From Haliotis rufescens (lineage: Eukaryota): 64,000 nt of DNA. Position numbers and translations under genes: made by a program. Location of the stretch: assembly GCF_023055435.1 (NCBI RefSeq), contig NW_025964372.1, positions 27,528,001 through 27,592,000 of the forward strand, read 5' to 3'. The notes beneath the pieces were generated by a model that saw only the letters and a list, made by a program, of their open reading frames with translations, was not told where the DNA came from and ran no database searches. Numbering within the stretch: position 1 is the stretch's first letter; every line of letters starts with the position of its first letter. Positions 1 to 64,000 of the stretch are shown piece by piece.

Positions 1-1150
1 ACACAGCATGCACTAAGTTCAAAAGCACGAAGCAAGGGCAATAATACCATTTACCAAACTCTTTTAAGATCATAACAAGTAAGGTGAGTGTGTTAAATTT
101 CATTTGTCCAACTTCAATAGTCTATAAGAAAAATGTCCCCATTGTGAAGTGGGCATGCATACAAATGACACATATATTGTTCTTCGTGGCGGGGATAAAA
201 CATTATTAGTTTGTTGTAACTGAACCTTAGGGAACCTGCATTTAGGTATAAAACGTCATTGCCAGACAATAACCAGTCATACGAAAGAGAAAGGCAAAAT
301 AGTGTTGAAAATATTTGACTGCATCGCTGAAAATCAGTGATGACGCCAGGCATTTGCGAAATGGGTTAGCATGTTCTACCCACGACTTGTTAAGACGGAG
401 GTGTAATCCTCTCTTGACTACCGAAATAATGGCCATTCCGAAACATCCTCAGTAATATCAACCTATCCTAATCTTTGCCTGATTCGAGCTTTAGGGCTGC
501 TTTGAAAACAACAGGAGAGCTGCAATAGCACACCCATAATGAACTGAGGACCCTCCAAACTATAAGTCGATCAGGGTTGCTTGGTCGTTTGTTGTTTAAC
601 GCAGCCCTCAATAATATGCCACCTATAAATTGAGTTCGGACAAGACAATCCAGTGAGTGACATTAACACCAATCCATAGTTTGGAATATGACACTGGATC
701 AACCATGGCCCCGATCATATCAATGAATATGATATATACTACTCAAGGCGAGTTAAAAGGGGATGTTTTTCATTTGACAGATTAAACAGATTTAACAACT
801 TTTTGTGGGAGGTTTAGCACATAAAAGGCTGGAGTAGAGACACACCATTGGTCATATCCAACTTATCGGTAACTCATTTTGGACAAGTGGTTATTTTAAC
901 TCACTAGCTTTGGCGAAAAAACAAAAAGCCAGACTACATTTTCACTAGCTTCGGACTCACGGACAACTGGCCGTGCCTGTCCCTTAAAGGGTGGAATATG
1001 ATTAAGTTGAAGTCATTTTTCATTGGCACAACTCAAATTGATTGTTCGATTTTGATAGGAAAGCGACATTTTGTCACTGGAGAAGAGGCCAATTAAATTG
1101 TTGAACCCTAAGTTAATTGTAGAGATAGGAGAGCAAAGTGATAGCAAATT

Positions 1151-1305
1151 AACTTGGTTGATGCATGTCATTATATCCCAGTTGCGTGGATCGATGCCCA
1201 TGATTCAATCACTGGATTGTCTGGTCCAGACTCTATTATTCACAGACCGCCGTCATAAATTTAGCTGGACTATTGCTGAGTGCGGCGTTAAAAAAACAGC
1301 AACAA
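1151..1305 (+). mobile_element. 5'-truncated copy of the same SINE-like family
   Basis: Aligns by eye to 1490-1635. Confidence 0.7.
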
Positions 1306-1383
1306 TGGAATATTGCTGACTGATGTGTTAAGCAACAAACACACATTCGAAACCCATACCTGTCGAGTTGATCATACCAATGA

Positions 1384-1635
1384 GACCTGTGAAGATCCGG
1401 GGTAGAATAGGTCTTCACCATGCTTGCTGTAAAAGGCGACTATGCTTGTCGTAAAAGGCGACTAACGGGATCGGGTGGTCAGGCTCGCTGACTTGGTTGA
1501 TGCATGTCATCGATCCCAATTGCGTGGATCGATGCTCATGATATCAATCACTGGATTGTCTGGTCCAGACTCGATTATTTACAGACCACCATCATATAGC
1601 TGGAATATTGCTGAGTGCGGCGTTAAACAACAAAC
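1384..1635 (+). mobile_element. SINE-like interspersed repeat (also 22756-23007 and 44103-44354)
   Basis: Core cactggattgtctggtccagactcgattatttacagacc...gctgagtgcggcgttaaacaacaa recurs in diverged form at ~588-706(-), 1151-1305, 2080-2254, 15559-15670 and 20997-21228(-); simple-repeat tail. Confidence 0.75.
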
Positions 1636-2079
1636 CACCACCAAATCACCACACCTATGGTTGAAACAAATGATACCATGGGATGACACTGTTCCACTTC
1701 CTTTGTGGGAAGCTTTGTATCAGATATTAATCCTTTGCCAGGTTGACACTTTTTTCTTTTCTTTTGTGAAAGGATCGGGGGAAAAGCTTGCCACAAATAA
1801 ATAAATAATTTAAACTGATATTTATTTTCAAGTTAATAGAATTAGCAAAATGAAACTGATCTGAAATATTAATTGGCCAAATACATTGTATATAGTCCCT
1901 GACCACTACAAAAACTTCATAATGAGTAAATATCCTTCTCTAGCAGAAGTAAACATACATGTATATACATGTTATGGTTTAAATATCCTTAGGGATTCCG
2001 GATTGAATTGGTCCCTTGGGCCGTTGGCTAAATATCTAACATCATCATAAACCCTATAGCAACCTATAGAAGCTAAATA

Positions 2080-2254
2080 GATCGGGTGGTCAGACTCAGT
2101 GACTTGGTCAGTGTCGTGTCTTTGTCGTGCTGCGACGGCGTGGATCGTTGCTCAAAATACCAATCACTGGATTGTCTGGTCTAGATTCGATTATTTACAG
2201 GCTGCCATCATATAGGTTGAACACTGATGGGTGTGGCTTTAGGCAACAGACACA
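2080..2254 (+). mobile_element. Degenerate SINE-like copy whose 3' tail is the LTR-element insertion site
   Basis: atcgggtggtcagactc...cactggattgtctggtctagattcgattatttacagg...ggctttaggcaacagacaca directly abuts the LTR. Confidence 0.7.
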
Positions 2255-2676
2255 TGTAACACAACACAAGAAGGCGGTTTGAGGATTACGTAGTTTTAAT
2301 CACAATGGCATATGTACAAGTCAAAGGAAGTGTGCCGTCCTTCCTTCCTCCCTCTAGATACTCACCTGTACCTTAGGGTGCTGAGACCAAGTCTGCCGGT
2401 ATTTGGAAGTCGCCCGGTAAATATATAGTAATGACGGAATGCCAAGCATTTTGTTTTGCACAGGTACTAAAATTTGGTGTGGTCAACTTGAGATTAAATT
2501 GACCATCAAGTGGTGTCCATGACGAGGCACTTAAAATTGTTCCCCTTAAGGTGACATGAAACCACCACTCACTGGTCCACTTGATATGTACTTGACATAT
2601 CCACGGGGTCAGTCGTATTTGGCAAACACTGATAGTGTTACATTAGTCGTATTTGGCAAACACTGATAGTGTTACA
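2255..2676 (-). repeat. 3' LTR (422 bp), copy 1
   Basis: Direct repeat of 10056-10545; TG...CA termini; adjacent PPT; TATA-like tract near 2418-2428 and ATTAAA near 2295 on the minus strand. Confidence 0.95.
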
Positions 2677-2689
2677 TCCGCCCCTTTCT
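2677..2689 (-). promoter_or_regulatory. Polypurine tract (also 24204-24216 and 45551-45563)
   Basis: Minus-strand AGAAAGGGGCGGA immediately precedes the TGTAAC of the 3' LTR. Confidence 0.9.
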
Positions 2690-3099: not shown

Positions 3100-5028
3100 T
3101 TAGTTCATGCAGCAACAATATCGCAACACTGTACTGTTTAGTAGTGGGCATCCAGGCCAGGGTACAGGCGTCGTATGGATGACGTTGTTGGAGGCGCCGA
3201 AGTCTGATCCCCCGTCATCAGTGGTGCAGGTCGCTAAGCCGCTCCTGGAGTCGGTACTCGCGACCTGGATCACATCAGATCCCATCAACTCGAATTCGGG
3301 TGTTTCCCGGGTGTGCTTTCCCCAAGTGAGCATTTTGGATAGCCAAAATTTTCTATATCTTAAAACCATTATCAATATTATTATGACTAGTAACATGATA
3401 CCCCCAACTAACCACTTTTTCCAGTTAATTTTCTTATCCCAACTAATTTCAGTGTTTACACTATGTAATTCATCAATTAAATGACTCATGGATACCGTAT
3501 CTATATTCTGGAGGTGGCTTGGAACTTTCGATATCGTCACATTTCTTAATTTTTCCTTAAAGGGTTTCCATAACAGCATATCTAAAACGTTTGGCATATG
3601 AGGTAGCTGAGCCCAGATCTCATTTAATTCAAACCTGCTTTCATTACGATAAAATGGTAGTAATGTCAAATGATTGTTTGAAGCTGTACAAGAGACGTTT
3701 ACTCGTAACATACCTATTGGTGGGTAAATAGTTATTATCTGTGGATATACTTTTTAACATACTATAGTAAAGTCTAGTTGTTCAGCGGTCGCAATGACCC
3801 ATTGGCCTTCCCAAATATTATCTGCCCTAGGCAGTATCATGTGCATGGTAACTTCCCGTTTACACAAGCTCTTGACTTTATCTAAATCTTTCATGAAGAG
3901 CGCGATCATGAACATCTGACTAAGATTTAGGGGATAAGTCGGGCTGCTTATCATGCGTGATTCTAATTTATATGTGGCAACCATGCCAGCTACTTTAGTA
4001 AATTCATGCGTTTTATCTGAGAGGAGAGGTAGTGGTAAATTATGAATTTTATAAATTTCGTATTGCCCATTATAATCTAATAGTGGAAGTGATATTATTA
4101 TCAAAATCTTTTCCTCATAAACTAAGGTCGAGCATGTTAATGTTCGATAATAATTCCATAATTCCTTTTTCTGGATCTTTTGCCAGTTTATAGCCACTTG
4201 GTAAATGAATATTTATTTCACGTAATAATACTAATAATTCACTTGGAGTGACAGTGCCTGGCGACAAGTGTCCGAGTGATAGAGCATTAAATTGTAATTG
4301 GAGGTGATTGATATAAGACATCAATGTTTGTATTGTTTGTCTTACGTCTTCAATTACTAAATCTATCTTGAGATAATTGTTAGTAGCCCATTCAAGTTTA
4401 TCTATACGCCCCGCAAGAATTCGGGAGATGTTTGCTACATTTACCTCTACTTCCTTGAGATTATCAATAACTGCATTAATTGTTTGTCGGTTCTTCTGAA
4501 CTTGAATCCTTGTTACATTCAAAATAGTGAGTTCTTCATGAACTACATGCGATATGGTTTCTTGGTTCTTAGCAATTTTGTTGATATTGTTTTTGATTGA
4601 ATTTAAATCAGACTCGGATACTGTTCCAAATAGATAACTTAAAGCATCGCCAATAAATGGGATTAATGATCGCTTTGGTCTTATCAACTTCCTGTATTCT
4701 AGAAAACTAACTTCTAGCGAACTTAGTGTATTATTTAGACCCGTAATTTCCTTGTCTAACCTGTAGAAGGTTCCTTCTACTTTGTTAACATCAGTGCTGC
4801 TATGGTAGCGACTGATCAGTCTACGCAAAACTAATGCAACTTCTTCGATATCCTTCCTACATCTTTGAATATAGTCAATATAAGGTTTCATGTCTATTAC
4901 TAGTGCTACAAGCCATTTTGAACAAGTTGTAGAAATATCATTGACCTTTTGAAAAAACACGTTTTCAGAAACTAATAGACTAATAAACCACCAAAACACA
5001 ACACTGTTAATATGGTAAACACACCCAT
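3100..5028 (-). pseudogene. env: env, F-type (baculovirus F/errantivirus-like) class I fusion glycoprotein, disrupted, copy 1
   Basis: ATG at 5028 with hydrophobic leader MGVFTILTVLCF; furin site RPKR followed by fusion peptide SLIPFIGDALSYLFG; heptad-rich region; TM WLVGGIMLLVIIILIMVL; frameshifts near 5000 and 4170; in-frame TAA at 3754-3756. Confidence 0.88.
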
Positions 5029-8000
5029 TTCCTGCAAATATACAGAATAAAAAAACTATATAAAACTGTGACTAACCAAGACTACATACAACTATAATCA
5101 TCAGTTGTACTCAAACATGAATACCATATATGCTCAATACCATATATACAAAACAAACAAGATATGCATGCAGTGCCCGATTATACTACGAAGCCTTATA
5201 GTAACCCGGCTACTGCCTCAAACAACTTCTTAACCTTATCATCAGGGGTTAATTGACGTGTCTCTTTAACTTCATTTACGGATACATTATCATTATCTGA
5301 TGATTCACTTGATCCGTTGTCCTCCGTCGAATTGTCAATAGAGTCACGTCGCCTAGCACTCAAGCGTTTGGCAAGTTGGGCTAACGGAACGTCATTCTCT
5401 GAGTCTGAGTCTGAACGTTCCTGTCTATACCGCTTTGTGATCCTTGACATGGGATCCTTTGATCCTTGTACCTCCTCGTCCGAGGTTGATTCTGAGGATA
5501 GTGATATAACATTATGTTGTTTTCTTCGAGGTCTACCTTCTGTGTCCTTGGGAATTTCCCAATCATCTAGATTAGCAATCCTAAGATGTTCTGCATGAGC
5601 TCGTGTAGTTGATCCATCAAGCTGATTTCGTATGATGTAAGTTACTGGCGATGTTTGTTCAATAACCCTGTAGAACGGCTTCCACCTGTTCTGTAGCTTA
5701 CTCTTCCTTTGATGAAATCTATAGTAGACAGGGTCGCCAACCTTGATTTTGTTTACTGCTCCTGTCGGCATATCGGGCCTGTCTTTCTTTGCTTTCTTCA
5801 TGTTCTTGTGTACTAGAACGAATGCCTTGTGCTGCTGTTGCAGTGCTGTTTTATGTTCTTCGTCACCTGCATACTTACGTCTCGGTCGTAGCAGGTTGTC
5901 AACAGGAAGAACGACGTCACGATTGTACAACAAGAAGTATGGCGAAAACTTGGATGATTCACAGATGTAGAAACGAATTGCAGCCAAGGTTTGATTTAGG
6001 TATAAGTCCCATGTTGTTACGTTGTCATTCAGCTTTTTCGCAAGGACATCATGTAATGTACGATGAAATCGCTCAACTCTTGCATTGGACTGGGGGTGAT
6101 AAAATGACGTCCTGACGTGGTTGATCCCTAATGCTGACAATGTTTCACTGACAACCTTGTTAATATTCTCTGTCCCGTTATCTGTGACAATCTGTAGTGG
6201 ACAGCCAAACCTCGGGAATATCTCCTCTAGTATCAGATGGGCAACTGTCTCTGCTGATTTATCAGGTACTGCATACGCCTCAGGCCAACCGCTGAAGTGG
6301 TCAACGAAGCCGATGATATATTTATTCCCAGATAATGTTGTCGGATAGGGTCCTGAGAGATCCATACTTACCTTCGCAAATGGGTAGGGCGGAATCTCAG
6401 TTTCCTGCAAAGCTGGTTTCTGGGCCTTCATGGTTCTAGATTGACAAGTGATACATTTGCCGATACACTCAGTTATCTCCCTGTAGAGGTTGGGCCAATA
6501 ATATTTCAGTTTTATTGCCTCAAATGTCTTGTCAATCCCCATGTATCCGTTTGCATCATGATATTGCGTGACCACGATCTGTTTGAACTTTTCGGGTACA
6601 TATAACCTGGGCGATGGATCATCCTCAATTGCACTGACATAGTACAATAGATCATTTATGACTAAGTACCTTTTTAAGTGTGACTTGTCACCGTGACCTT
6701 TTTCCAGTTGTTCTTTGATGCTCGTGATGTTTTCATCCCTATCCTGCTCTTTCTGCATGTCTATATCCATTTCCATTCTGCGTGGCAATGAAGATGCCTC
6801 GGGAATTGGCAAATCGCAGCTAGCAAAATTCTTAGGGTTGAATTTGGTGGGGTTCAATGCCTCAATCCTCAGACTGTTGTCGGGTCGATCAATCTCAATG
6901 TCTTCCTCATTAGGCCCGCAGCCGTTATCTGTGTTTGATTTGCCCCGAGATAGTAGATCTGCACAAGTGTTGTTCTTTCCTGCCATATACCCGATCTTAC
7001 AGGTATAGCCCGCGATTCCCAGTGCCCATAGTTTTTCTACCTGTTCACCCTCACTTTCATGTGTCTGAACCAGACACGCCCCTATACAGCTGTTACTGGC
7101 GTCCGTGTACAGAGTGTATGGCCTATTCGGGTCGGGATAGGTCAGTAATGGTACAACCGTCAGACTGTCTTTCAAGAAATCAAAAGACTTTTGACATTCT
7201 TCAGACCACGAGAATCTCGCAAATCTCTTGGTAAGTTTTACCATGGGTTCAGCAATATTTGAGAAATTGGGGATAAATCGGCGGTAATAACTGCACATCC
7301 CTATGAACCCTCGTACTTCTTTTACTGACCTTGGGGCTTCCATTGACCTAATGGCCTCTACCTTTTGGTTGTCAGGTTTTATTCCATCTTGATTGATGAC
7401 AAAACCTAAGTACTGAGTTTCCTCCTTGGCAAAGCTACATTTTGACAACTTGAGTTTTAGTGAATGTTGGCGGAGTCGTTCATAAACTGTCTCGATATGA
7501 AGTAAATGTTGTTCTTCCGACTTTGAGAATATCAAAATATCGTCTAGGTAGGCTATTGCAAATGCATCGAGACCCTGTAAAACTTCATTCATAAGTTCCA
7601 TAAAAACTGCTGGAGCATTACAAAGTCCAAAAGGCATCACGTTAAATTCAAAAAGACCTCTATGACAAGCAAAAGCAGTTTTTTCTTTATCTTCATCATC
7701 CATTTGAGGGGTAAAGTCGTTGAAATAGGACGGCTAATTTTGTTCAAAACCCTAAAGTCTACACAAAAACGCTTCGATCCCTATTTTTTGTCAACGTCGA
7801 CAATGGGGAAACTCCATGGTGACCTAGAACGTCGAATGATCTGAGCATCTAACATGTCATCGATCGCCTTATCTACAACTTTGCGTTTGTTAAGAGGAGT
7901 TCGATATGGCTTCATCTTGATCGGAACATTGTCACCTGTGTCTATCTTCATACGTACAGTTTCTGTCTGCCCTAAGTCTAAATCACTCTTTGCAAATAAA

Positions 8001-8777
8001 CCCTTGTTTTGAGACACTAAATCAGTTAACCTTGATTTCAAATTAACTGGAGCGTCAATGTCAACATTGAGATCACAGGATATGTCCCTATCAGCTAATT
8101 CATCGCTACGCTCCTTAGCGTCCCTAGTACGCAACCTCTCTTCAACCTAAATGTACGGTTGGTATTGTTGACTAGCAGTAATGGGACATTCCTATGTTTG
8201 TCAATCTTAACAATAGAATTTCCTATGAGTAGACCTGGTTCATTTGCTGGGTAACTCTTTTCAATTGTGGAGATTTCATACGTGCTTGATGTTTCAAAAT
8301 ATGGTCTATTTTTAATCTTTGCCCTTAAGATATTTCTACACTGAGGTTTTACTGTTGTATCCGCTGCTAACCTGACTAGAGAAGATATATGGATATCTTC
8401 CTCTAGCGGTACATAAGTTTTCCCTACTGTTAAGCTACCCAAGTCGAAATACACCCTAACACCTGCCTGTGTCAACCAATCGTGTCCTAATATAAGATTT
8501 CTGTTCATGTTTCCTACAACATAGAAGGTATAGGAAAGATTGACGCCTCTCATCCTAAAGTGAACTTTCACATTCCCATCTACCTGTAACGAATTCCCAT
8601 TAACCCCTTGTAAAGCGACTTTCTTTTTGTTTAACGGAAATCTATCTTTTATTGAATCGTACACCCTACGATGCATTATCGACACTTCAGCGCCAGAATC
8701 AATTAAACACCTCCATTGTTTTTTTCCTATTTTGATACTACACGAATTTGGTCTCCCCACTTCATTTATTGAATGTA

Positions 8778-8923
8778 CTGGGCCATTTGTCGCCTTCTCT
8801 CCCTCATCGGCTTCTGGGCCATTTGTCGCCTTCTCTCCCTCATCGGCTTCTGGGCCATTTGTCGCCTTCTCTCCCTCATCGGCTTCTGGGCCATTTGTCG
8901 CCTTCTCTCCCTCATCGGCTTCT
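8778..8923. repeat. 36-bp x4 perfect tandem repeat at the start of pol (EADEGEKATNGP); also 30107-30252 and 51454-51599
   Basis: ctgggccatttgtcgccttctctccctcatcggctt repeated four times. Confidence 0.95.
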
Positions 8924-8949
8924 TTATGAGGAAGAGAATTTAGTTTCCC
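8903..8949 (-). promoter_or_regulatory. gag-pol -1 ribosomal frameshift signal (G GGA AAC slippery heptamer plus stem-loop)
   Basis: Minus strand CAG GGA AAC TAA ends gag; pol is open in the -1 frame; 12-13 bp stem UCUCUUCCUCAU/AUGAGGGAGAGA begins 4-5 nt downstream. Confidence 0.8.
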
Positions 8950-9899
8950 TGGTTTTGTTTTCTTGGTGGTCTGTTTGGACAATTTCGTTTAAAGTGGCCC
9001 GATTGATTGCATAGCCAATATACCCTGATCTCTTGCTCTCTCTCATTAACCGCATAAACACGTTTTGATCTGCAATCCTAAGCCCGGTGACCTGGCTTCC
9101 CGCATGAGAAACAATTACGACGCTGTCTAGCATGATCAACGTCCATAGGCACTTCTCGCCTCCCGCTATTCGAATCGTGCCCTCTACTATTAAAATCATG
9201 CCCTCGGCTACTCGGTTTTCCCAACCTGAGTTCGAATCTAGCCCTAATGTTTTGTTCACGCGTGGCCGAGGCCACTGCTTCTTTGAGGGATGTGGGGTTT
9301 TCCCTCATAAGTTTTTTTCTGCATGTACTCATGACTCAAGCCATCTCTGAAAAAACCTATCAATTGTCTTTGGATGGCGGGATTATCTTCACCGTCCTGC
9401 CCTAATCCTTCATAAGCCTCTTCGGCCAAGTTTAGTAGTCTTTCAGCATAAATCTGAACACCCTCACTATGTTTTTGTTTGACCGCCCTTAAAAACATAA
9501 ATGCGTGTTGTGGGTCGCTTATTTCAGCAAACCTGCTCGTTAGCTCTGCCCTTAACTCCTTCCATGTTTTGGCAGGATTATCATCCATATAGCATTGCAC
9601 GAAGTCGCTTACAGCGCCATCACAACTCTGAAAAGCAATTAGCTTTTTACTGGCGTCTTGATTTGCGCCAGTTAGCAATGCATACTTTTCTACAGATTTG
9701 ATCCATTTTTTTAAATCTTTCGGGTTCCCCACAAATGTTTTATAGCTTGATTCACGCCCTGTGCGCTTAGCGTTGTATTTACAGCAGCTAGCCTCCCGTT
9801 TATTTCATTTCCCTGTGCCCCTAATGTTGAAGTTACTGTTGATAACTGCCCCGTTATTTCTCCCGCTAACCCTTGTAAGAATTGTGCATATTCTGCCAT
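8940..9899 (-). pseudogene. gag: gag with two CCHC zinc knuckles, disrupted, copy 1
   Basis: ATG at 9899 (MAEYAQFLQG); capsid-like region WKELRAELTSRF; CFSCGKPGHRA*DC and (Y)WLCNQSGHFKRNC; two frameshifts and one premature stop. Confidence 0.9.
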
Positions 9900-10014: not shown

Positions 10015-10032
10015 ATCCTGGTCTCGGCACCA
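10015..10032 (-). promoter_or_regulatory. Primer binding site, tRNA-His-like (also 31344-31361 and 52692-52709)
   Basis: Minus-strand TGGTGCCGAGACCAGGAT; from memory 17/18 match to the complement of an invertebrate tRNA-His 3' end; tRNA-Phe is the next candidate. Confidence 0.7.
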
Positions 10033-10055: not shown

Positions 10056-10545
10056 TGTAACACAACACAAGAAGGCGGTTTGAGGATTACGTAGTTTTAA
10101 TCACAATGGCATATGTACAAGTCAAAGGAAGTGTGGCGTCCTTCCTTCCTCCCTCTAGATACTCGCCTGTACTTTAGGGTGCTGAGACCAAGTCTGCCGG
10201 TATTTGGAAGTCGCCCGGTATATATAGTAATGATGGAATGCGAAGCATTTTGTTTTGCACAGGTACTAAAATTTGGTGTGGTCAACTTGAGATTAAATTG
10301 TCCATCAAGTGGTGTCCATGACGAGGCACTTAAAAATGTTCCCCTTAAGGTGACATGAAACCACCACTCACTGGTCCACTTGATATGTACTTGACATATC
10401 CATGGGGTCTTCACGGGGTCAGTCGTATTTGGCAAACACTGATAGTGTTACATCAGTCGTATCTGGCAAACACTGATAGTGTTATGATATGTACTTGACA
10501 TATCCACGGTGTCAGTCGTATCTGGCAAACACTGATAGTGTTACA
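10056..10545 (-). repeat. 5' LTR (490 bp), copy 1
   Basis: Direct repeat of 2255-2676 with extra U3 duplications; followed by CACA TSD. Confidence 0.95.
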
Positions 10546-11876: not shown

Positions 11877-14800
11877 ATGCTGCTCATCTCTCTGTTCGTG
11901 GTTGTGTTGGGGGTTGCTGAGACACATGGTAAGTATTTCAACCGAATTTTCTACCATAATTTTCCAACTCTTATTAGGAATAGTTCGGTGTTGACATGAA
12001 ACTGCAGGTTAAGTCATAATTGTGTATCCCAGTTATACATATATTATATACAGGTAGAGACGGATCATGCTAAAAGTTGCTTTGCTCGGACAAATACACA
12101 ATGTTTATGTTCATGATCATGTATGAAAGGTTACTTTAGAACTATATACTCGCCAACAGGCATATAACCATGCATATACATACGTATGTATCAGTTTTAC
12201 TGTGTAGCTAGAATGTGTGTAAACTGTCGGGCACAAGACTTGTTTGATGGTTTGATGGTGACTAAACATGCTGTAATTGATATGGGTATCATAGTTGTGT
12301 TTCGGATCTCAAGTAATGTTTCGGATCTACATATATAATTTTAAGGTATGACTAAGATACCACAAGCATGGTATAAGAACACTGTATACGTTTCCCCAGA
12401 ATCCAGGGTCGCAGATAATGCAGGGTTTTGCAACATTGGCGCTAATGGAGTTTTAACCATTGAGGCCACCCTTGCTCTGTGTTTGAAGGTATAGAGGAAA
12501 ATATAGGTTTTTAGCTTTGGGATTTAATTTACCTACAGCTGTGATTGTTTGTCCCCAGGTGCTATGATCCCTGTCCTTGGGTCACAGGTCACTTCCTCCT
12601 CAGTCTTCACCTTCGGCTCCACGAACTTCGTTCCACAGTTTGCCGTTGACGGCGGATTTGGCACCGACTTCATCGCTGACAACACTACGTTTGCAACGGC
12701 TGTTGGAGACACAATGCCCTACATGGACATTGATCTGGGCAGCAACTTCCTTCTCGTCTCCGTCACCATCACCAACAGGGGTGACTGCTGTGGTAAGTAG
12801 AGTGAGATGGTTAGGTGTATTTATTTCTTTTAAAGACAGATAAATAGAATTACATACTGTCAAATGATCTGATTGTCCACAGATTCGTCCTCACATCATG
12901 AAACCCATATCGCCACTTTTTGGGCATTTCATCGATGTTTTGAGCTTGAAAGTAGTTCTTGCTCGATGACCTTATTTGAATATTTATTGGGTCAAATACT
13001 GAACAACAAAAGTTTTTTATCTAATCTGAAACAATTTCAGTTTGCAACAGACTCCTGTAAGTGTTCAAATGGTTTAATTTGCCATACTGACTTCAGAAAA
13101 TGCGTGATTTCATAAAAATAACATGAACATGCCAAAATGTCAGTTTACAAATCAATAGCATGTGTGTCCACCTCTGGTTGCAAAGCAAGCAACACATCTT
13201 CGTCACATGGAATGGACCAGGCGTCGCACATAGTCCTGTGGGATATCTGTCCATAACTGCTGGAGCATGTTTCGAAGTTCCTGGAGTGTCTGTGGAACAC
13301 GTGGTTGACGTCGAAGGCGCCGATCCATCTCATCCCACATGTGCTCGATTGGTGAGAGATCAGGGGAGCGAGCCGGCCAGGGGATGACATTCACGTTGTT
13401 TTAAATCCTGAACAAGCCGAGCAATATGAGGCCGGGCGTTGTCATGTTGAAAGGTAATGCCTGGACCATGATGACGCAAAAACGGTAGAACAAAAGGGCC
13501 GATGATCTCGTCGAGGTAGCGTTTTCCATTGAGATTTCCCTCTACCACTATCAAACGGGTCCTCTGTCTTGCTGTCATCCCACCCCATACCACAACGCTG
13601 CCGTTCCCGAACCGATCTTCTTCCATGCCACAATGATTAACGTAACGTTCACCTCGACGTCCGTCAATCGCTTAGGCTGAGGTGAAAACGAGAATCTTCA
13701 ATGAATAGAACTTGTCCCCACTGCATGGCCGTCCAGCGTAGACGCTGTCTGCACCACTGTAGACATGCTTTACAGTGGATTTCTGTCAAAATTGGACGCC
13801 TGGCGGGTCTTCTGGCGACAATCCCTGCACATCCAGTTGTCTTGTCGATTATTAGTTACGCGTGACTGCCACTCCGAGGACGGTCTCTGACTGCATTCGT
13901 CTGTAGGCAACGTTACCATAAACACCAAATGTTGTTTCTGTGGACGTTAAATTGTCTTGCAACATCACTTTGACTCGATCCTGCTTCAAGCATACCAATG
14001 GCTCGCAGACGCTCATTTTCGGGCAGGCGTGGCATTTCGTAATGTTGAATAATTGCGTAATTTTGTTGTTTTTCTGAGTGGTTGTTGTCAGCACGATGCT
14101 AAACAATGCATATGGAATCCCGTTAACGCACGTGTTTTTATACCTATTCTTCGGAAGTGAAATGCATGGGACTTGCATAAAAGTCATCTTTTGCTTGGAA
14201 TGCATGCTTTTCTGGAGCAGTTGCGTTTTTGTGACTTGATTCCATACATGTACTACAATAGTGAAACCAAACTTTACTTGTTTGAAATATACACTAAAAT
14301 ATTGGTGTCACAGGAACTTTTGTTTTTGAGTATAGTAACAAGTTGATTGGATTGCTTTTTCACATCAATAACACTATGATATTTATCACATATTACCTAA
14401 ATAAATAGAACGGTGTCACGTTTAACTTTCTCTATCGTTCTCAATGCTGTTCTTTGCTACCACCAAAGCAGTCTATTCAGATTAAGGCGTGTTGGTTGAC
14501 TTATTCTGCCCTTGGTAAACAGTAAGGTAGACTCGGGATGATTATCGTGGTCCCTCATAGCTGTAGATTTCTTTTACATCAGAAACATGTACAGAACTGA
14601 GATCATACAAAGCATATATATCTTCAAGAACATTCTATGGAGAGCGTAGACCTAGAATTACAACACATTCCTGCTGAACTTGATATCAGTCATCAACGCT
14701 CCAGTTCCCAAGTCACAGTATGTCCACAGGACCCTGTGTTAAACTGTGTAACCTGGCAGATTGTATGGTATGGTGTCATGCCCCGACGGCGTGGATATTT

Positions 14801-23560: not shown

Positions 23561-23715
23561 GATTATTTACAGGCTGCCATCATATAGGTGGAACACTGAT
23601 GAGTGTGGCTTTAGGCAACAGACACAACAATAATAATCAAACACCCTGCATCTGTTTCCACTAAATCGAGCGACTACATTACTTAATGTGTGCAACATCT
23701 TACAAGGCAATAAGT
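23561..23715. repeat. 155-bp local tandem duplication holding the empty LTR-element target site (also 44908-45062)
   Basis: ggcaacagaCACAacaataat...caataagtga joins the left and right proviral flanks with a single CACA (23623-23626). Confidence 0.9.
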
Positions 23716-26357: not shown

Positions 26358-26524
26358 TTCCTGCAAATATACAGAATAAAAAAACTATATAAAACTGTGA
26401 CTAACCAAGACTACATACAACTATAATCATCAGTTGTACTCAAACATGAATACCATATATGCTCAATACCATATATACAAAACAAACAAGATATGCATGC
26501 AGTGCCCGATTATACTACGAAGCC

Positions 26525-45973: not shown

Positions 45974-47704
45974 TTAGTTCATGCAGCAACAATATCGCAA
46001 CACTGTACTGTTTAGTAGTGGGCATCCAGGCCAGGGTACAGGCGTCGTATGGATGACGTTGTTGGAGGCGCCGAAGTCTGATCCCCCGTCATCAGTGGTG
46101 CAGGTCGCTAAGCCGCTCCTGGAGTCGGTACTCGCGACCTGGATCACATCAGATCCCATCAACTCGAATTCGGGTGTTTCCCGGGTGTGCTTTCCCCAAG
46201 TGAGCATTTTGGATAGCCAAAATTTTCTATATCTTAAAACCATTATCAATATTATTATGACTAGTAACATGATACCCCCAACTAACCACTTTTTCCAGTT
46301 AATTTTCTTATCCCAACTAATTTCAGTGTTTACACTATGTAATTCATCAATTAAATGACTCATGGATACCGTATCTATATTCTGGAGGTGGCTTGGAACT
46401 TTCGATATCGTCACATTTCTTAATTTTTCCTTAAAGGGTTTCCATAACAGCATATCTAAAACGTTTGGCATATGAGGTAGCTGAGCCCAGATCTCATTTA
46501 ATTCAAACCTGCTTTCATTACGATAAAATGGTAGTAATGTCAAATGATTGTTTGAAGCTGTACAAGAGACGTTTACTCGTAACATACCTATTGGTGGGTA
46601 AATAGTTATTATCTGTGGATATACTTTTTAACATACTATAGTAAAGTCTAGTTGTTCAGCGGTCGCAATGACCCATTGGCCTTCCCAAATATTATCTGCC
46701 CTAGGCAGTATCATGTGCATGGTAACTTCCCGTTTACACAAGCTCTTGACTTTATCTAAATCTTTCATGAAGAGCGCGATCATGAACATCTGACTAAGAT
46801 TTAGGGGATAAGTCGGGCTGCTTATCATGCGTGATTCTAATTTATATGTGGCAACCATGCCAGCTACTTTAGTAAATTCATGCGTTTTATCTGAGAGGAG
46901 AGGTAGTGGTAAATTATGAATTTTATAAATTTCGTATTGCCCATTATAATCTAATAGTGGAAGTGATATTATTATCAAAATCTTTTCCTCATAAACTAAG
47001 GTCGAGCATGTTAATGTTCGATAATAATTCCATAATTCCTTTTTCTGGATAATTGTTAGTAGCCCATTCAAGTTTATCTATACGCCCCGCAAGAATTCGG
47101 GAGATGTTTGCTACATTTACCTCTACTTCCTTGAGATTATCAATAACTGCATTAATTGTTTGTCGGTTCTTCTGAACTTGAATCCTTGTTACATTCAAAA
47201 TAGTGAGTTCTTCATGAACTACATGCGATATGGTTTCTTGGTTCTTAGCAATTTTGTTGATATTGTTTTTGATTGAATTTAAATCAGACTCGGATACTGT
47301 TCCAAATAGATAACTTAAAGCATCGCCAATAAATGGGATTAATGATCGCTTTGGTCTTATCAACTTCCTGTATTCTAGAAAACTAACTTCTAGCGAACTT
47401 AGTGTATTATTTAGACCCGTAATTTCCTTGTCTAACCTGTAGAAGGTTCCTTCTACTTTGTTAACATCAGTGCTGCTATGGTAGCGACTCATCAGTCTAC
47501 GCAAAACTAATGCAACTTCTTCGATATCCTTCCTACATCTTTGAATATAGTCAATATAAGGTTTCATGTCTATTACTAGTGCTACAAGCCATTTTGAACA
47601 AGTTGTAGAAATATCATTGACCTTTTGAAAAAACACGTTTTCAGAAACTAATAGACTAATAAACCACCAAAACACAACACTGTTAATATGGTAAACACAC
47701 CCAT
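45974..47704 (-). pseudogene. env: env, F-type fusion protein, disrupted, copy 3
   Basis: As copy 2. Confidence 0.87.
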
Positions 47705-47871
47705 TTCCTGCAAATATACAGAATAAAAAAACTATATAAAACTGTGACTAACCAAGACTACATACAACTATAATCATCAGTTGTACTCAAACATGAATAC
47801 CATATATGCTCAATACCATATATACAAAACAAACAAGATATGCATGCAGTGCCCGATTATACTACGAAGCC

Positions 47872-50800
47872 TTATAGTAACCCGGCTACTGCCTCAAACA
47901 ACTTCTTAACCTTATCATCAGGGGTTAATTGACGTGTCTCTTTAACTTCATTTACGGATACATTATCATTATCTGATGATTCACTTGATCCGTTGTCCTC
48001 CGTCGAATTGTCAATAGAGTCACGTCGCCTAGCACTCAAGCGTTTGGCAAGTTGGGCTAACGGAACGTCATTCTCTGAGTCTGAGTCTGAACGTTCCTGT
48101 CTATACCGCTTTGTGATCCTTGACATGGGATCCTTTGATCCTTGTACCTCCTCGTCCGAGGTTGATTCTGAGGATAGTGATATAACATAATGTTGTTTTC
48201 TTCGAGGTCTACCTTCTGTGTCCTTGGGAATTTCCCAATCATCTAGATTAGCAATCCTAAGATGTTCTGCATGAGCTCGTGTAGTTGATCCATCAAGCTG
48301 ATTTCGTATGATGTAAGTTACTGGCGATGTTTGTTCAATAACCCTGTAGAACGGCTTCCACCTGTTCTGTAGCTTACTCTTCCTTTGATGAAATCTATAG
48401 TAGACAGGGTCGCCAACCTTGATTTTGTTTACTGCTCCTGTCGGCATATCGGGCCTGTCTTTCTTTGCTTTCTTCATGTTCTTGTGTACTAGAACGAATG
48501 CCTTGTGCTGCTGTTGCAGTGCTGTTTTATGTTCTTCGTCACCTGCATACTTACGTCTCGGTCGTAGCAGGTTGTCAACAGGAAGAACGACGTCACGATT
48601 GTACAACAAGAAGTATGGCGAAAACTTGGATGATTCACAGATGTAGAAACGAATGGCAGCCAAGGTTTGATTTAGGTATAAGTCCCATGTTGTTACGTTG
48701 TCATTCAGCTTTTTCGCAAGGACATCATGTAATGTACGATGAAATCGCTCAACTCTTGCATTGGACTGGGGGTGATAAAATGACGTCCTGACGTGGTTGA
48801 TCCCTAATGCTGACAATGTTTCACTGACAACCTTGTTAATATTCTCTGTCCCGTTATCTGTGACAATCTGTAGTGGACAGCCAAACCTCGGGAATATCTC
48901 CTCTAGTATCAGATGGGCAACTGTCTCTGCTGATTTATCAGGTACTGCAAACGCCTCAGGCCAACCGCTGAAGTGGTCAACGAAGCCGATGATATATTTA
49001 TTCCCAGATAATGTTGTCGGATAGGGTCCTGAGAGATCCATACTTACCTTCGCAAATGGGTAGGGCGGAATCTCAGTTTCCTGCAAAGCTGGTTTCTGGG
49101 CCTTCATGGTTCTAGATTGACAAGTGATACATTTGCCGATACACTCAGTTATCTCCCTGTAGAGGTTGGGCCAATAATATTTCAGTTTTATTGCCTCAAA
49201 TGTCTTGTCAATCCCCATGTATCCGTTTGCATCATGATATTGCGTGACCACGATCTGTTTGAACTTTTCGGGTACATATAACCTGGGCGATGGATCATCC
49301 TCAATTGCACTGACATAGTACAATAGATCATTTATGACTAAGTACCTTTTTAAGTGTGACTTGTCACCGTGACCTTTTTCCAGTTGTTCTTTGATGCTCG
49401 TGATGTTTTCATCCCTATCCTGCTCTTTCTGCATGTCTATATCCATTTCCATTCTGCGTGGCAATGAAGATGCCTCGGGAATTGGCAAATCGCAGCTAGC
49501 AAAATCCTTAGGGTTGAATTTGGTGGGGTTCAATGCCTCAATCCTCAGACTGTTGTCGGGTCGATCAATCTCAATGTCTTCCTCATTAGGCCCGCAGCCG
49601 TTATCTGTGTTTGATTTGCCCCGAGATAGTAGATCTGCACAAGTGTTGTTCTTTCCTGCCATATACCCGATCTTACAGGTATAGCCCGCGATTCCCAGTG
49701 CCCATAGTTTTTCTACCTGTTCACCCTCACTTTCATGTGTCTGAACCAGACACGCCCCTATACAGCTGTTACTGGCGTCCGTGTACAGAGTGTATGGCCT
49801 ATTCGGGTCGGGATAGGTCAGTAATGGTACAACCGTCAGACTGTCTTTCAAGAAATCAAAAGACTTTTGACATTCTTCAGACCACGAGAATCTCGCAAAT
49901 CTCTTGGTAAGTTTTACCATGGGTTCAGCAATATTTGAGAAATTGGGGATAAATCGGCGGTAATAACTGCACATCCCTATGAACCCTCGTACTTCTTTTA
50001 CTGACCTTGGGGCTTCCATTGACCTAATGGCCTCTACCTTTTGGTTGTCAGGTTTTATTCCATCTTGATTGATGACAAAACCTAAGTACTGAGTTTCCTC
50101 CTTGGCAAAGCTACATTTTGACAACTTGAGTTTTAGTGAATGTTGGCGGAGTCGTTCATAAACTGTCTCGATATGAAGTAAATGTTGTTCTTCCGACTTT
50201 GAGAATATCAAAATATCGTCTAGGTAGGCTATTGCAAATGCATCGAGACCCTGTAAAACTTCATTCATAAGTTCCATAAAAACTGCTGGAGCATTACAAA
50301 GTCCAAAAGGCATCACGTTAAATTCAAAAAGACCTCTATGACAAGCAAAAGCAGTTTTTTCTTTATCTTCATCATCCATTTGAGGGGTAAAGTCGTTGAA
50401 ATAGGACGGCTAATTTTGTTCAAAACCCTAAAGTCTACACAAAAACGCTTCGATCCCTATTTTTTGTCAACGTCGACAATGGGGAAACTCCATGGTGACC
50501 TAGAACGTCGAATGATCTGAGCATCTAACATGTCATCGATCGCCTTATCTACAACTTTGCGTTTGTTAAGAGGAGTTCGATATGGTTTCATCTTGATCGG
50601 AACATTGTCACCTGTGTCTATCTTCATACGTACAGTTTCTGTCTGCCCTAAGTCTAAATCACTCTTTGCAAATAAACCCTTGTTTTGAGACACTAAATCA
50701 GTTAACCTTGATTTCAAATTAACTGGAGCGTCAATGTCAACATTGAGATCACAGGATATGTCCCTATCAGCTAATTCATCGCTACGCTCCTTAGCGTCCC

Positions 50801-51625
50801 TAGTACGCAACCTCTCTTCAACCTAAATGTACGGTTGGTATTGTTGACTAGCAGTAATGGGACATTCCTATGTTTGTCAATCTTAACAATAGAATTTCCT
50901 ATGAGTAGACCTGGTTCATTTGCTGGGTAACTCTTTTCAATTGTGGAGATTTCATACGTGCTTGATGTTTCAAAATATGGTCTATTTTTAATCTTTGCCC
51001 TTAAGATATTTCTACACTGAGGTTTTACTGTTGTATCCGCTGCTAACCTGACTAGAGAAGATATATGGATATCTTCCTCTAGCGGTACATAAGTTTTCCC
51101 TACTGTTAAGCTACCCAAGTCGAAATACACCCTAACACCTGCCTGTGTCAACCAATCGTGTCCTAATATAAGATTTCTGTTCATGTTTCCTACAACATAG
51201 AAGGTATAGGAAAGATTGACGCCTCTCATCCTAAAGTGAACTTTCACATTCCCATCTACCTGTAACGAATTCCCATTAACCCCTTGTAAAGCGACTTTCT
51301 TTTTGTTTAACGGAAATCTATCTTTTATTGAATCGTACACCCTACGATGCATTATCGACACTTCAGCGCCAGAATCAATTAAACACCTCCATTGTTTTTT
51401 TCCTATTTTGATACTACACGAATTTGGTCTCCCCACTTCATTTATTGAATGTACTGGGCCATTTGTCGCCTTCTCTCCCTCATCGGCTTCTGGGCCATTT
51501 GTCGCCTTCTCTCCCTCATCGGCTTCTGGGCCATTTGTCGCCTTCTCTCCCTCATCGGCTTCTGGGCCATTTGTCGCCTTCTCTCCCTCATCGGCTTCTT
51601 TATGAGGAAGAGAATTTAGTTTCCC
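47872..51625 (-). pseudogene. pol: pol, disrupted, copy 3 (835-aa ORF 47872-50379)
   Basis: As copy 1. Confidence 0.95.
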
Positions 51626-52575
51626 TGGTTTTGTTTTCTTGGTGGTCTGTTTGGACAATTTCGTTTAAAGTGGCCCGATTGATTGCATAGCCAATATACC
51701 CTGATCTCTTGCTCTCTCTCATTAACCGCATAAACACGTTTTGATCTGCAATCCTAAGCCCGGTGACCTGGCTTCCCGCATGAGAAACAATTACGACGCT
51801 GTCTAGCATGATCAACGTCCATAGGCACTTCTCGCCTCCCGCTATTCGAATCGTGCCCTCTACTATTAAAATCATGCCCTCGGCTACTCGGTTTTCCCAA
51901 CCTGAGTTCGAATCTAGCCCTAATGTTTTGTTCACGCGTGGCCGAGGCCACTGCTTCTTTGAGGGATGTGGGGTTTTCCCTCATAAGTTTTTTTCTGCAT
52001 GTACTCATGACTCAAGCCATCTATGAAAAAACCTATCAATTGTCTTTGGATGGCGGGATTATCTTCACCGTCCTGCCCTAATCCTTCATAAGCCTCTTCG
52101 GCCAAGTTTAGTAGTCTTTCAGCATAAATCTGAACACCCTCACTATGTTTTTGTTTGACCGCCCTTAAAAACATAAATGCGTGTTGTGGGTCGCTTATTT
52201 CAGCAAACCTGCTCGTTAGCTCTGCCCTTAACTCCTTCCATGTTTTGGCAGGATTATCATCCATATAGCATTGCACGAAGTCGCTTACAGCGCCATCACA
52301 ACTCTGAAAAGCAATTAGCTTTTTACTGGCGTCTTGATTTGCGCCAGTTAGCAATGCATACTTTTCTACAGATTTGATCCATTTTTTTAAATCTTTCGGG
52401 TTCCCCACAAATGTTTTATAGCTTGATTCACGCCCTGTGCGCTTAGCGTTGTATTTACAGCAGCTAGCCTCCCGTTTATTTCATTTCCCTGTGCCCCTAA
52501 TGTTGAAGTTACTGTTGATAACTGCCCCGTTATTTCTCCCGCTAACCCTTGTAAGAATTGTGCATATTCTGCCAT
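51616..52575 (-). pseudogene. gag: gag, disrupted, copy 3
   Basis: As copy 1. Confidence 0.9.
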
Positions 52576-54553
52576 TTTGCTCACTTAAGTACTTGCAAAA
52601 ACCCAAAGAATCACCTTTTTGCGAGTCCCGGGACCAATTCCCTCGATCCTAGTCGTTTCCTTTGGATCCCTCTCCTTCTCTCCTTAAGGTGATCCTGGTC
52701 TCGGCACCAGTTTACGTAACCCCGCCCCTTCTTGTAACACAACACAAGAAGGCGGTTTGAGGATTACGTAGTTTTAATCACAATGGCATATGTACAAGTC
52801 AAAGGAAGTGTGGCGTCCTTCCTTCCTCCCTCTAGATACTCGCCTGTACTTTAGGGTGCTGAGACCAAGTCTGCCGGTATTTGGAAGTCGCCCGGTATAT
52901 ATAGTAATGATGGAATGCGAAGCATTTTGTTTTGCACAGGTACTAAAATTTGGTGTGGTCAACTTGAGATTAAATTGTCCATCAAGTGGTGTCCATGACG
53001 AGGCACTTAAAAATGTTCCCCTTAAGGTGACATGAAACCACCACTCACTGGTCCACTTGATATGTACTTGACATATCCATGGGGTCTTCACGGGGTCAGT
53101 CGTATTTGGCAAACACTGATAGTGTTACATCAGTCGTATCTGGCAAACACTGATAGTGTTATGATATGTACTTGACATATCCACGGTGTCAGTCGTATCT
53201 GGCAAACACTGATAGTGTTACACACAACAATAATTACGTTGAAATATCAAACAACCTGCATCTGTTTCCACTAAATCGAGCGACTACATTACTTAATGTG
53301 TGCAACATCTTACAAGGCAATAAGTGAACAGAGCTCACAATAATACTCCCACATTGAACATATTTCTAAGTTCGTGAACCGTAAAAACGAAGAGGATTGA
53401 TATAATCCTATGACGATTTTGCATTTAGATTGGTTGTGTAGAACAGCGTGGTCCCACAGTCATTGAATTGATTAAAAAGATAAAGGATATTTGGATAATG
53501 TTGCCAAATAAGATGTTGATCTCATCGGCGCCATAATGGGTGAGGTTATTTCATCAAACGTCTGAATTTCCTGGTCAAAAGGCGTCGAAACTGTTTTTTT
53601 ATAAATTAAACTGTGTTTCATACTTATGTTGAAGTACACAATGGCTGAATATACAGTGCCAGGTAAATAAATATGTACAAAGGACATAAATATAAAACAC
53701 CCCTCTATGATTAATTAGCAGGGGTACAGATAAGTTGATGTTTTGAGACATTTTTGTAATGTTATTTAAATTTTTCTGAATATATAATTTATTTTTAATT
53801 TGAAAGAATATAGGTAATAAAAGCGAAAAAACACTTTACATTTTAGTAAGACATGTCCATTGTAAGATTACGACTCTATCGTGAGGATGTGAAGAATCTC
53901 CAAAAAATATCCTAATACCATTTTTCTGTAGAAAAAATAGTGCTCTATTCTTCTTCACAAATACGGCTTATAAAACGATTAAACAAACATTCAAGAAATA
54001 TTCATTCGGTTATGATAAATACCCTGAGTATCCTTCCTCAAAGCAAAGTTAGCGCATATATAGTTACGTCCTTTGATCCATGTAATCTTTTAAATTTGAG
54101 TGCATATTGTCTGCAATGGGGAAAGTAAAATCAGATATTCTCATGACACCAAACCACCCTAGTGCCTGTCTCTTCTAAGGGAGATTTATTTGCTTGTTGC
54201 TTATCGCTGCTCTCAACACTGTTCCTTTTGTAATGGAGGATTGGTATACAGCCATATAGTACTTTGTATCTGAAGTCCGTTCAGCATCATTCGAACAATG
54301 TGAACTTTATTATCAAATTGTATCACATATGTCATGTGACTGACACCAATCAGAATGAACACCTGTTTAATTAAACTTAATTAAACGTAGTTAATAGCTT
54401 AATTTCTGCACCGTAAATCATATCAAACTGTCAGGTAAATAGAAATTACACATGGCCCACTGTGGTTAATTCTGCCTCGTCGAGATGATTAAAATCTTTG
54501 GTATAAATATAGAGACACCAACCCTATCTGACAAATCATCCCGATTGTCTACA

Positions 54554-61754: not shown

Positions 61755-62640
61755 GTTCTTTAATGATATATGTATTGGTAATTTTTACAGTCGTCATGAT
61801 TAGGGTATCTTGTCTAAAATAGGTTGTAATATATGCATCTGTCTACAAAAGTAGTGTCCAACCTAAGATGATTTGAAAAGTAATCAAATGAATCGTACAA
61901 TGGCACCTCTAAATACAATCGTTGTGTTAAAAACACCTACTATTATACCAATGTACTCGTAAATAAAGAATTACCAATATCATTGTGTTGTGTTATGGTC
62001 GAACACTGGTTGTATTATGATATATTTTAGTGAAATAACAAATTGACATGTGTTACTCAAAAGAAAGTTAAAGAACACCCGATTCTTTCATCATAGTTAA
62101 TCGTGTTTTCCTTTAACTTCTTTTGAGCAGGATATAATACCAATACAACACACATAAGCTTTGTTAGCGTGTGACATAAACTCTCAACAAGACTGAATGA
62201 TGAAAGGGATGAACTTTCATTTTGTGCCGAGCAATATTCCAGCAGCTCCAGGGTGTGGTGTCTACCTTCATTTAAGTTGTTTGATCAAGATTACAACATT
62301 CAAATCTTAAGCAACGCTTTCAAAATGGTTTATGGAAGAAATGTGGAGGATATTTCCATATTTGATGTAGTAGTGACAAAGATATGTCCGGTTTCCTATT
62401 CTGACTTGTGTCATATGTTTCCGTGTTTTTAGGGACCAATTGACTTGCCTTTGCGTGTGTTGTGATTGGTGGAGCAGCAAACGCTCACTTTTTCGCAAAC
62501 ACCTAATGTCGTCACTCATTGATAGTGAATCATCAACATAAACATGCTAATGATACAATCTGAATCGTAAAATCTATTCAGCATTTGGTCGAGACTGGAG
62601 TGTTTCTGTGTCGGGAGCTTGATCCCGATCCCAGGCCGCA

Positions 62641-62641
<1 letters not shown>

Positions 62642-62700
<59 letters not shown>
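62642..62700. repeat. (CA)~29 microsatellite
   Basis: Seen directly. Confidence 0.98.
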
Positions 62701-62704
<4 letters not shown>

Positions 62705-62759
62705 TCATTCACTAACTCTCACACATTGCGTACATACGCAAAGTCAAATTTCTTTTTGT

Positions 62760-63014
62760 GCCTTTGGCGTCTACATTTCACTTTTGAGGTACACTCTAAG
62801 AAGATTTCAAAGAGCGACATACGACTCTCCTTTCTTTACTTGTTTCATTAAGGTTACAACATTGAAACTGGTTTACACATGGAGGACATTCCTTAAACTG
62901 ATATATCAGATGCAAATAAGAAGCAATTCCCTATTTTGACTTGTACCGTATGTTCCCGAGGTTTTAGCTGAAAAATTGACTTGCCTTTGTATGTGTTTGT
63001 GACGGGTGGAGCAG
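62760..63014 (+). mobile_element. Second, diverged Penelope-like 3' fragment
   Basis: Encodes AFGVYISLLRY; aligns by eye with 62258-62478 (aattgacttgcctttg...ggtggagcagc). Confidence 0.55.
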
Positions 63015-64000
63015 CGGTTAAATCTAAAGGTAACCTAGCTCTACATTGAAAACACAGTATGTTTATCTCCATTTTACCATGACTAAATAAAACGCGAAGT
63101 CTTTGGTGGTAGCAATTATATTGTGTAAAGTGTCGTGGGTTAGTTCATTGTCTTGAGTGGGTTGTTGATCTGAATTACGGAATCACAGACAACAGCCTAT
63201 AAACAAAATATGGCGCTGTTTATTCTCAAGCAGTTAATTCACTCCGTAATAAGTCACTCGAACATATGCTAGGCAGTGAAAGGGTATAAGCACAGCAACT
63301 TGATCAACTAACACGAGGTGGGCACGCCTAAAGAAAATTTAACAAGCTTTCCAAAGTTTCCGTTCTACACTGCACGTCACCATCATGACGTCATGTCGCT
63401 CATTGTGACGCAAACGATATGATGTGACAGTTGTATATAGAGAAACGCCAAATTCCAAGTTCTCTGTTGTCCCCAAAACTTAAAATATATTCTCTTTGAA
63501 GATTTCTATCGTGTTTTCTGCACGAAATGTATTGCCAAACATCCTTTGAATATTGTTATGACCTCAACTTTGCAATTTGTAAAATAATTATTTAAATATG
63601 CCTACAGACAATGACTAAAAAAAGGACTATTCTATGAATATTAGCTTCTGCAGTTATGCGGCAGTCAGACCAGCTGTTTCAATCAGAGGGTTTATTGTAA
63701 TTTAATAGCCTCTGATTGACCAGTCAAAATCGAGTAATTTCAATATGCATGTTAGAATTATCATTATGAATATGGAATTTTTTTTGTCATTTTGATTTTA
63801 ATATGCAAGACGGTATAGATAAAAACAGCTAATCTGTCAATACCAACGTGTTAAGAAAGACCTTGCTTACCACGTATTATTAACTTTAGTTTGTTTGTTT
63901 GTTTGTTGTTTAACGCCGCACTCTGTAATTATCCAGTTATGTGACGGCAGTCTGTAAATAATAGTGTCTGGACCAGACAATATAGTGATTGACATCATAA

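Follow-up and report, generated by a model that had tools for sequence, protein, structure and literature searches.

How did three copies of an intact lectin gene, each with the same dead provirus upstream, come to lie head to tail in the genome of Haliotis rufescens? The array was studied in a stretch of 64,000 nucleotides (the window; contig NW_025964372.1, positions 27,528,001 to 27,592,000, here G000:C594:27,528,001-27,592,000) of a 1.33-Gb genome, together with 200 kb of flank. Our answer is that the triplet probably arose by unequal crossing-over between lectin paralogs, with the provirus as a passenger and with extra copies that were tolerated, which is most likely for them, rather than selected. 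The expansion represents one step of turnover in a lectin cluster of nine intact tandem genes at C594:27.468-27.602 Mb, named A-E, u1-u3 (those of units 1 to 3) and F, the other six without a provirus.

Self-alignment of the window bore out the three head-to-tail units that an earlier note had described from the letters of the sequence, with periods of 21,329-21,392 bp (~21.35 kb) and identities of 99.6-99.9% across 15-21 kb. As the note had also said, all three units (3/3) hold an intact lectin gene, with GT-AG introns and zero internal stops, and the translations of u1, u2 and u3 are exactly identical to the database proteins P0016, P0012 and P0017, respectively, whose genes are annotated as uncharacterized. 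The genes and the proviruses are located as follows.

11877..19077, plus strand: lectin gene u1, 8 exons, 476 aa, chimeric; equals P0016
33206..40406, plus strand: lectin gene u2, intact, chimeric as u1 (crossover at ~40,041-40,219); equals P0012
54554..61754, plus strand: lectin gene u3, intact, with its own exon 8 and 3' flank retained; equals P0017
2255..10545, minus strand: provirus copy 1, an env-bearing Ty3/gypsy element of 8,291 bp with broken gag, pol and env and a 4-bp target duplication, CACA
23782..31874, minus strand: provirus copy 2, 8,093 bp
45129..53222, minus strand: provirus copy 3, 8,094 bp

The core of the units diverges by only 0.08-0.11%. Between units 1 and 2 there are 16 substitutions over the 14,340 bases of core (4372-18,711); units 2 and 3 are separated by 16 substitutions in ~21,100 bases plus one 1-bp indel. 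Altogether the core differences amount to 22 substitutions and this indel, nested as (u1,(u2,u3)): at 12 sites units 2 and 3 agree against unit 1, while four changes occur in unit 2 alone and six in unit 3 alone, which has one more next to the indel. At the left end, positions 1-2953 carry 33 substitutions (1.1%) relative to their counterpart in units 2 and 3, a rate ten times as high as in the core. At the right end, unit 3 diverges from units 1 and 2 from exon 8 on (~61,570), and the alignment is lost at 62,641. The array does not fill positions 1-64,000, as had been proposed, since its start is within exon 8 of the upstream paralog, ~2.5 kb before the window begins. The actual unit runs from exon 8 to intron 7.

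In an alignment of the nine genes, u1 and u2 are of the u3 type as far as 18,711; from 18,891 on they go with the upstream gene E.

18712..18890: inferred crossover interval of unit 1 (179 bp, intron 7/exon 8), with copy-3-type alleles to the left and alleles of paralog E to the right

At informative sites, taken as those where E and u3 differ and u1 equals u2, the u1/u2 pair carries the u3 base at 415 of 418 sites left of 18,800; right of it the E base is found at 43 of 51, the u3 base at 7 and neither at 1. Alleles exclusive to u1, u2 and u3 lie at or left of 18,697 in 73 of 74 cases, and those exclusive to E, u1 and u2 at or right of 18,891 in all ten. The divergence from E falls from ~4% to ~1% where that from u3 rises from 0% to more than 3%. 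The left and right ends of the array fall at the same homologous point of two paralogs, the gene at the junction is chimeric, and the exon-8 swap changes residues 435 and 439 of u1 and u2 with respect to u3. This switch of copies 1 and 2 from matching copy 3 to matching the upstream paralog is the signature of unequal crossing-over between lectin genes and not between the long terminal repeats (LTRs) of the provirus.

It could still be asked if the provirus drove the amplification, through LTR recombination or transposition of the unit. Among the nine units only the provirus-bearing one was recently amplified, and a second haplotype switch lies inside env. Against these two points, the array ends at intron 7/exon 8 of the lectin gene, with the closest LTR of that unit more than 8 kb away, both LTRs and identical CACA flanks are retained in every copy, all the element's genes are broken, and LTR-LTR exchange predicts solo LTRs or tandem proviruses, not gene copies. 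We consider this origin highly improbable, and LTR-driven amplification was rejected on the position of the breakpoints.

The relative ages point in the same direction. The earlier claim that the LTR pair of one provirus diverges more than the same LTR does between units was confirmed: the pair differs by 9 (unit 1) or 8 (units 2 and 3) substitutions in 421 positions plus 3 indels, while the right LTR shows no difference in 491 positions between any two units and the left one 0 or 3 in 423. LTR divergence is therefore 1.9-2.1%, or 1.4% excluding two sites in a 34-bp repeat. With the white abalone rate of 8.6e-9 per generation and 6-year generations, as given in the available part of bioRxiv 2024.09.16.613283, this corresponds roughly to a provirus age of 5-7.5 million years (Myr; range 1.8-14), to 0.26 Myr (0.15-0.43) for the split of units 2 and 3 and to ~0.4 Myr for units 1 and 2, the latter calculated with 15 substitutions and not 16. 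The provirus is ~15-25 times older than the triplication and is for this reason regarded as a passenger. In addition, clean empty sites were found in three paralog units (L004, L008 and L012), and CACA flanks all three proviruses (3/3) on both sides. Empty sites, a breakpoint in the lectin gene and the ages together support what the note had suggested, namely that insertion and decay came first and that a recent expansion carried the provirus along. Its statement that all lesions are common to the three copies held for the broken frame pattern of gag, protease, pol and env, alike in 3/3 units, but not for a deletion of 198 bp in env and a duplication of 155 bp in the flank, present only in units 2 and 3; unit 1 has no such duplication.

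4174..4371, minus strand: 198-bp env segment of unit 1, missing from units 2 and 3
23627..23781: 155-bp local duplication with an empty target site, immediately left of provirus copy 2; unit 3 has it at 44974-45128

The history could then have run as follows. The starting point would be an old cluster of lectin units ~12-13 kb long, some of them carrying a Tc1 remnant in their second intron. One unit would then have received an env-bearing Ty3/gypsy element 1.33 kb upstream of its lectin gene, roughly 5-7 Myr ago, and this element would have decayed. Misaligned chromosomes may later have crossed over in intron 7/exon 8, between the provirus-flanked gene and its upstream neighbour E, an event that would duplicate the intervening 21.35 kb and form a chimeric gene, and a second unequal exchange would give three copies, at roughly 0.3-0.4 Myr ago. 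The differing left end of unit 1 might come from allelic recombination inside env or from a phase switch of the assembly.

An array of this kind could also be wholly or partly an assembly artefact, made of haplotypes joined in tandem or of a false duplication. Both inter-unit spacers contain an N run, indistinguishable from a gap, no spanning long read was seen, and the left 2.95 kb of unit 1, with its 1.1% of differences, resembles another haplotype. On the other hand, three distinct sequences are more than the two that a one-copy diploid could provide, the differences among units are nested substitutions and not homopolymer indels, and the breakpoint is in a stretch free of gaps, with the N run 1.2 kb further on. 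Sequencing depth in other individuals bears on the same question. We compared 17 kb of unit 3 with runs X1, X5, X6 and X8 (four samples from four studies, 4 of 14 runs classed as DNA or unknown). The provirus was covered evenly in 4/4, and contigs of 1,474 and 1,920 bp in X1 and X5 showed zero differences and are therefore not explained by the 96% identical copy on contig C556. The contig with the unit promoter had depths of 35, 49 and 192 beside ~42, 48 and 185 for the provirus in the three runs showing it, the exon 5 site was 2.2-3.3 times as deep as the provirus, the ratio expected with 9-10 genes and 3 proviruses, and another contig, originating elsewhere and found in all four runs, reached 0.25-0.38 of the provirus depth. 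These values fit, roughly, a haploid set with three provirus copies and nine or ten genes, so the read-depth check for an artefact favours a real array, only roughly. We are confident that the array is real and regard an artefact as very unlikely. Among the contigs listed (33,066 pieces fall outside the listing) none bridges the 198-bp deletion point or the crossover interval. The undeleted env form was present in X8 at depth 76. In X1, five clustered differences in the protease region (50944-50992) look like a conversion tract from another family member.

Several points weigh against crossing-over with tolerated copies as told here. One allele exclusive to u1, u2 and u3, at 19,300, lies right of the breakpoint and needs a later conversion, and seven of the 51 right-hand sites agree with u3; the wrong-side sites mostly look like alleles private to this E copy. 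The ages are rough, rest on the rate of another species and ignore gene conversion. N runs are present in the spacers, and no read covering two units was seen; contig depth cannot be equated with copy number, a validated single-copy control was lacking, and the depth ratios may also be compatible with one provirus and three genes. Finally, in the four other individuals pol is nearly invariant beside 1-2% variation in env, a combination that may point to a sweep rather than to drift.

The last point leads to an account with the same recombination, in which the three-copy haplotype was spread by selection for more, or for chimeric, lectin, the LTR maybe altering expression. We consider it unlikely, although part of the evidence suits it: the provirus is in all four of the other DNA runs at depths roughly fitting three copies, the 5' LTR lies only 1.33 kb from the lectin start codon, and env contigs vary from the window in three runs (8/690, 8/884 and 12/625 differing bases) beside the nearly invariant pol. 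Contigs drop minor alleles, though, and the low pol variation may be a majority effect. The residues altered by the exon-8 swap, 435 and 439, are in the long loop of the C-type domain, and 6 of the 25 residues variable among the nine genes fall in 434-452 (window 18940-19000; P=4e-4, for a loop window picked after the data were seen), but 3 of these 6 variants come from paralog D alone. Over the nine tandem genes the ratio of nonsynonymous to synonymous change (dN/dS) is 0.24, with 26 nonsynonymous against 34 synonymous variants, a departure from neutrality at P=6e-8, and the u copies compared with paralogs A-F give 0.27-0.58, with no value above 1. Purifying selection acts on the lectin genes. 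Dosage is already supplied by six other intact, near-identical genes. The note's proposal that dosage or diversification of the lectin was the driver was supported by no test here, in a cluster that already has nine near-identical intact genes. A more specific form, in which the three-copy haplotype swept the species within a few hundred thousand years through an LTR effect on dose or an exon-8 effect on specificity, seems to us more doubtful again. Unequal crossing-over between paralogs with tolerated copies is the reading kept below.

The gene carried by the array deserves a description of its own. Its exons in unit 1 are these.

11877-11928, 12559-12792, 15036-15269, 15851-16084, plus strand: exons 1-4
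17144-17377, 17613-17692, 18195-18291, 18812-19077, plus strand: exons 5-8

A more proximal splice acceptor for exon 2, which would cause a frameshift, was rejected. The C run between the two AGs has 3, 4 or 5 letters among paralogs and is taken as intronic because its length varies so freely, and the model with the distal acceptor was kept because its translation equals the database proteins exactly. The 476-aa product has a hydrophobic, signal-peptide-like start, two F-type domains, each encoded by two 234-bp exons, and one C-type domain. In the predicted structural model (predicted local distance difference test mostly 70-90 for residues 20-328) the F-type part adopts the F-type jellyroll fold, with 3cqo as top Foldseek match and a template modelling score of 0.77 and root-mean-square deviation of 2.9 to 1k12. 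The C-type part is of low confidence in the model; the C-type lectin-like domain is identified by PF00059 (26.6 bits from exon 8 alone, cut-off 22.6) and by many C-type sequence matches. Two F-type domains first and then a C-type domain is a layout found only in Haliotis proteins among 36 matches.

The F-type motifs are partly preserved. As given in the accessible text of PMC5712786, the cation motif is h2DGx, with x = N, D or S, and the fucose motif HX24RXDX4(R/K). In both F-type domains of the abalone protein the cation region reads AVDGG, that is, h2DG is present and x is Gly, and RXDX4R is found with vicinal cysteines (RGDCCADR and RADCCSER), while the His of the fucose triad is aligned to Phe in both, and the complete fucose motif is absent. 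The same position is Ser in a more distant, sister abalone clade (P0023-P0032). In the Phe clade two cysteines were lost jointly, one next to the triad position and one in the C-terminal strand (window 12528-12792 and 15817-16084, and paralogs). The usual calcium-sugar motifs of C-type domains are EPN/QPD and WND; they are absent from the C-type loop here, which has HPH/HPQ and WEE instead. Because of the replaced His and of this loop, the products are, judging by their sequence, F-type domain proteins and not canonical fucolectins. They are predicted to be secreted proteins of the glycan-recognition type with an altered or lost fucose site, and most likely act in self/non-self recognition at surfaces. 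A role in the shell matrix was left without support: the one fucolectin-domain protein of the H. laevigata shell proteome differs in architecture, as described in the text available of PMC6003135.

Around the triplet there are five intact tandem copies upstream (A-E), one downstream (F), one truncated copy and, in inverted orientation, five or more paralogs including the intact G. The exon-8 spacing is 11.9-13.2 kb without the provirus and 21.3-21.4 kb with it, and whole-gene distance is 0.13% for u1 and u2 against 2.3-8.9% among A-F. The plus-strand run ends in the truncated copy, with exon 1 only (L012-L013, C594:27,608,500-27,622,000), followed by an element like a long interspersed nuclear element (open reading frames of 358, 378 and 717 aa) and then by the inverted paralogs. 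A further, more distant match to an F-type exon (79%) is found 360 kb downstream at G000:C594:27,956,409-27,956,767. The Tc1 decay reported for the unit concerns a remnant that is indeed present but not specific to it, since intron 2 has the same length in paralogs A and C. A search of this remnant for terminal inverted repeats of 14 exact bases found none.

13050..14330 (bounds approximate), minus strand: Tc1/mariner remnant in intron 2, common to paralogs A and C

Outside H. rufescens, H. cracherodii contributes 6 of the 15 members listed of the same 17-member protein cluster. A contig (record 31) of X18, a guessed-RNA run with another species label, has exon 5 joined to exon 8 with 175 letters between them that match exons 6 and 7 (177 nt minus a 2-base overlap), and X17, under a third species label, gave exon-limited contigs with a depth of 44-96 and ~88% identity. 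From this join and these contigs, the family is spliced as modelled in relatives. The guessed-RNA runs X15 and X16, of the same species label, contain only unspliced pieces at depth 3-10 and were not used as evidence of expression.

The provirus is organised as expected for its kind, in the Pfam domain order gag, protease-reverse transcriptase-RNase H-integrase and then env. None of its genes has an intact reading frame; the element is broken in all three copies with the same pattern.

2255..2676, minus strand: 3' LTR of copy 1, TG...CA, with the polypurine tract directly inside
10056..10545, minus strand: 5' LTR of copy 1, 1.33 kb upstream of the lectin start codon and pointing away from the gene
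10016..10032, minus strand: primer-binding site, 17 nt complementary to the 3' end of host tRNA-His(GTG) plus CCA
5199..9804, minus strand: gag, protease, reverse transcriptase, shortened RNase H and integrase, in several frames
3103..5071, minus strand: env in three pieces, with an RPKR basic cleavage-type motif followed by a hydrophobic stretch, and a C-terminal hydrophobic segment

The primer-binding site is 23 nt inside the LTR end, and 14 of its bases are identical to host tRNA-His(GTG) 3' ends, followed by CCA. The intervening 23 nt (10033-10055) resemble the polypurine tract of the element plus an LTR-end-like motif. The tRNA scan found no tRNA gene at the nine exact-match loci or at L036; the tRNA-His array comes from matches with one mismatch, at L035 (C57:11.79-11.85 Mb), a tandem array of tRNA-His genes with a period of ~1,015 bp and ~50 matches listed. 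Just before the protease, in all three units, there is a perfect in-frame 36-bp repeat with 4.1 copies (8778-8923). The env matches PF07253 only weakly (24.4, below the cut-off of 27.5), and an env piece searched against PDB sequences gave nothing significant (best E 0.7-0.8). The family appears small, with one other long copy (on C556, 93-97% identical) as a lower bound and at least about a dozen LTR matches at 86-97% identity. That related copy has stretches of reverse transcriptase, RNase H and env that the window provirus lacks, and between the two LTRs of the related copy there are 4 differences in 470 bases. In its LTR a 59-bp unit is expanded to more than 20 repeats (L021, C556:46,679,025-46,681,150), and the window LTRs have only one or two units related to it.

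Every component of this locus is of a known kind, and the event is ordinary gene-cluster turnover with a well mapped breakpoint. Our literature search found no publication describing the locus or the family, in a coverage that leaves out most subscription papers. The locus offers a dated example of the growth of an invertebrate lectin cluster, with a crossover interval of 179 bp, a pair of chimeric genes and a dead provirus that serves as clock, and it highlights an unstudied abalone F-type/C-type family in which the fucose histidine was lost yet purifying selection acts. The provirus also supplies copy-specific markers for copy number, for expression of each copy and for a possible sweep. Its importance would be greater only if selection or LTR-driven expression were true; a sweep would make it an invertebrate parallel of the amplification of ERV-AMY1 (ERV, endogenous retrovirus), involving an abalone-specific F-type/C-type recognition protein.

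Compared with known systems, the abalone gene is F-type like the striped bass FBP32 (PDB 3cqo) and the eel agglutinin AAA (PDB 1k12), its best sequence matches having E values of 4.5e-20 and 8.7e-13. It shares two tandem F-type domains and keeps R-x-D-C-C-x-x-R and AVDG, whereas the triad His has become Phe, the neighbouring Cys and that of the C-terminal strand are lost, and a C-type domain is fused at the C-terminus. Drosophila CG9095/furrowed, in the part of PMC5712786 consulted, likewise unites F-type and C-type domains in a single chain, and its sugar residues too are non-canonical; unlike it, the abalone protein has neither CCP repeats nor a transmembrane segment, and its two F-type domains come first. 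As for the provirus, the accessible text of PMC13524379 reports from molluscs "ancient errantiviruses", env-carrying Ty3/gypsy elements with an F-type env. The abalone element resembles them in its LTR-gag-pol(protease-reverse transcriptase-RNase H-integrase)-env-LTR order, its tRNA primer site and an env with a cleavage-type motif and hydrophobic peptide. It differs in being broken in all genes, and the likeness is one of gene order and motifs; Haliotis has 0 occurrences in the main text of that paper, whose supplements may list abalone elements. By analogy, the closest precedent is the primate amylase locus, where, according to the available text of PMC12363942, a segment with ERV-AMY1 was duplicated and later copies arose by non-allelic homologous recombination. 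The gene family and the lineage are unrelated, and the change of expression by the ERV proposed at AMY1 is only hypothetical in abalone; in both loci, a gene was duplicated together with an upstream provirus and recombination between paralogs left mosaic copies.

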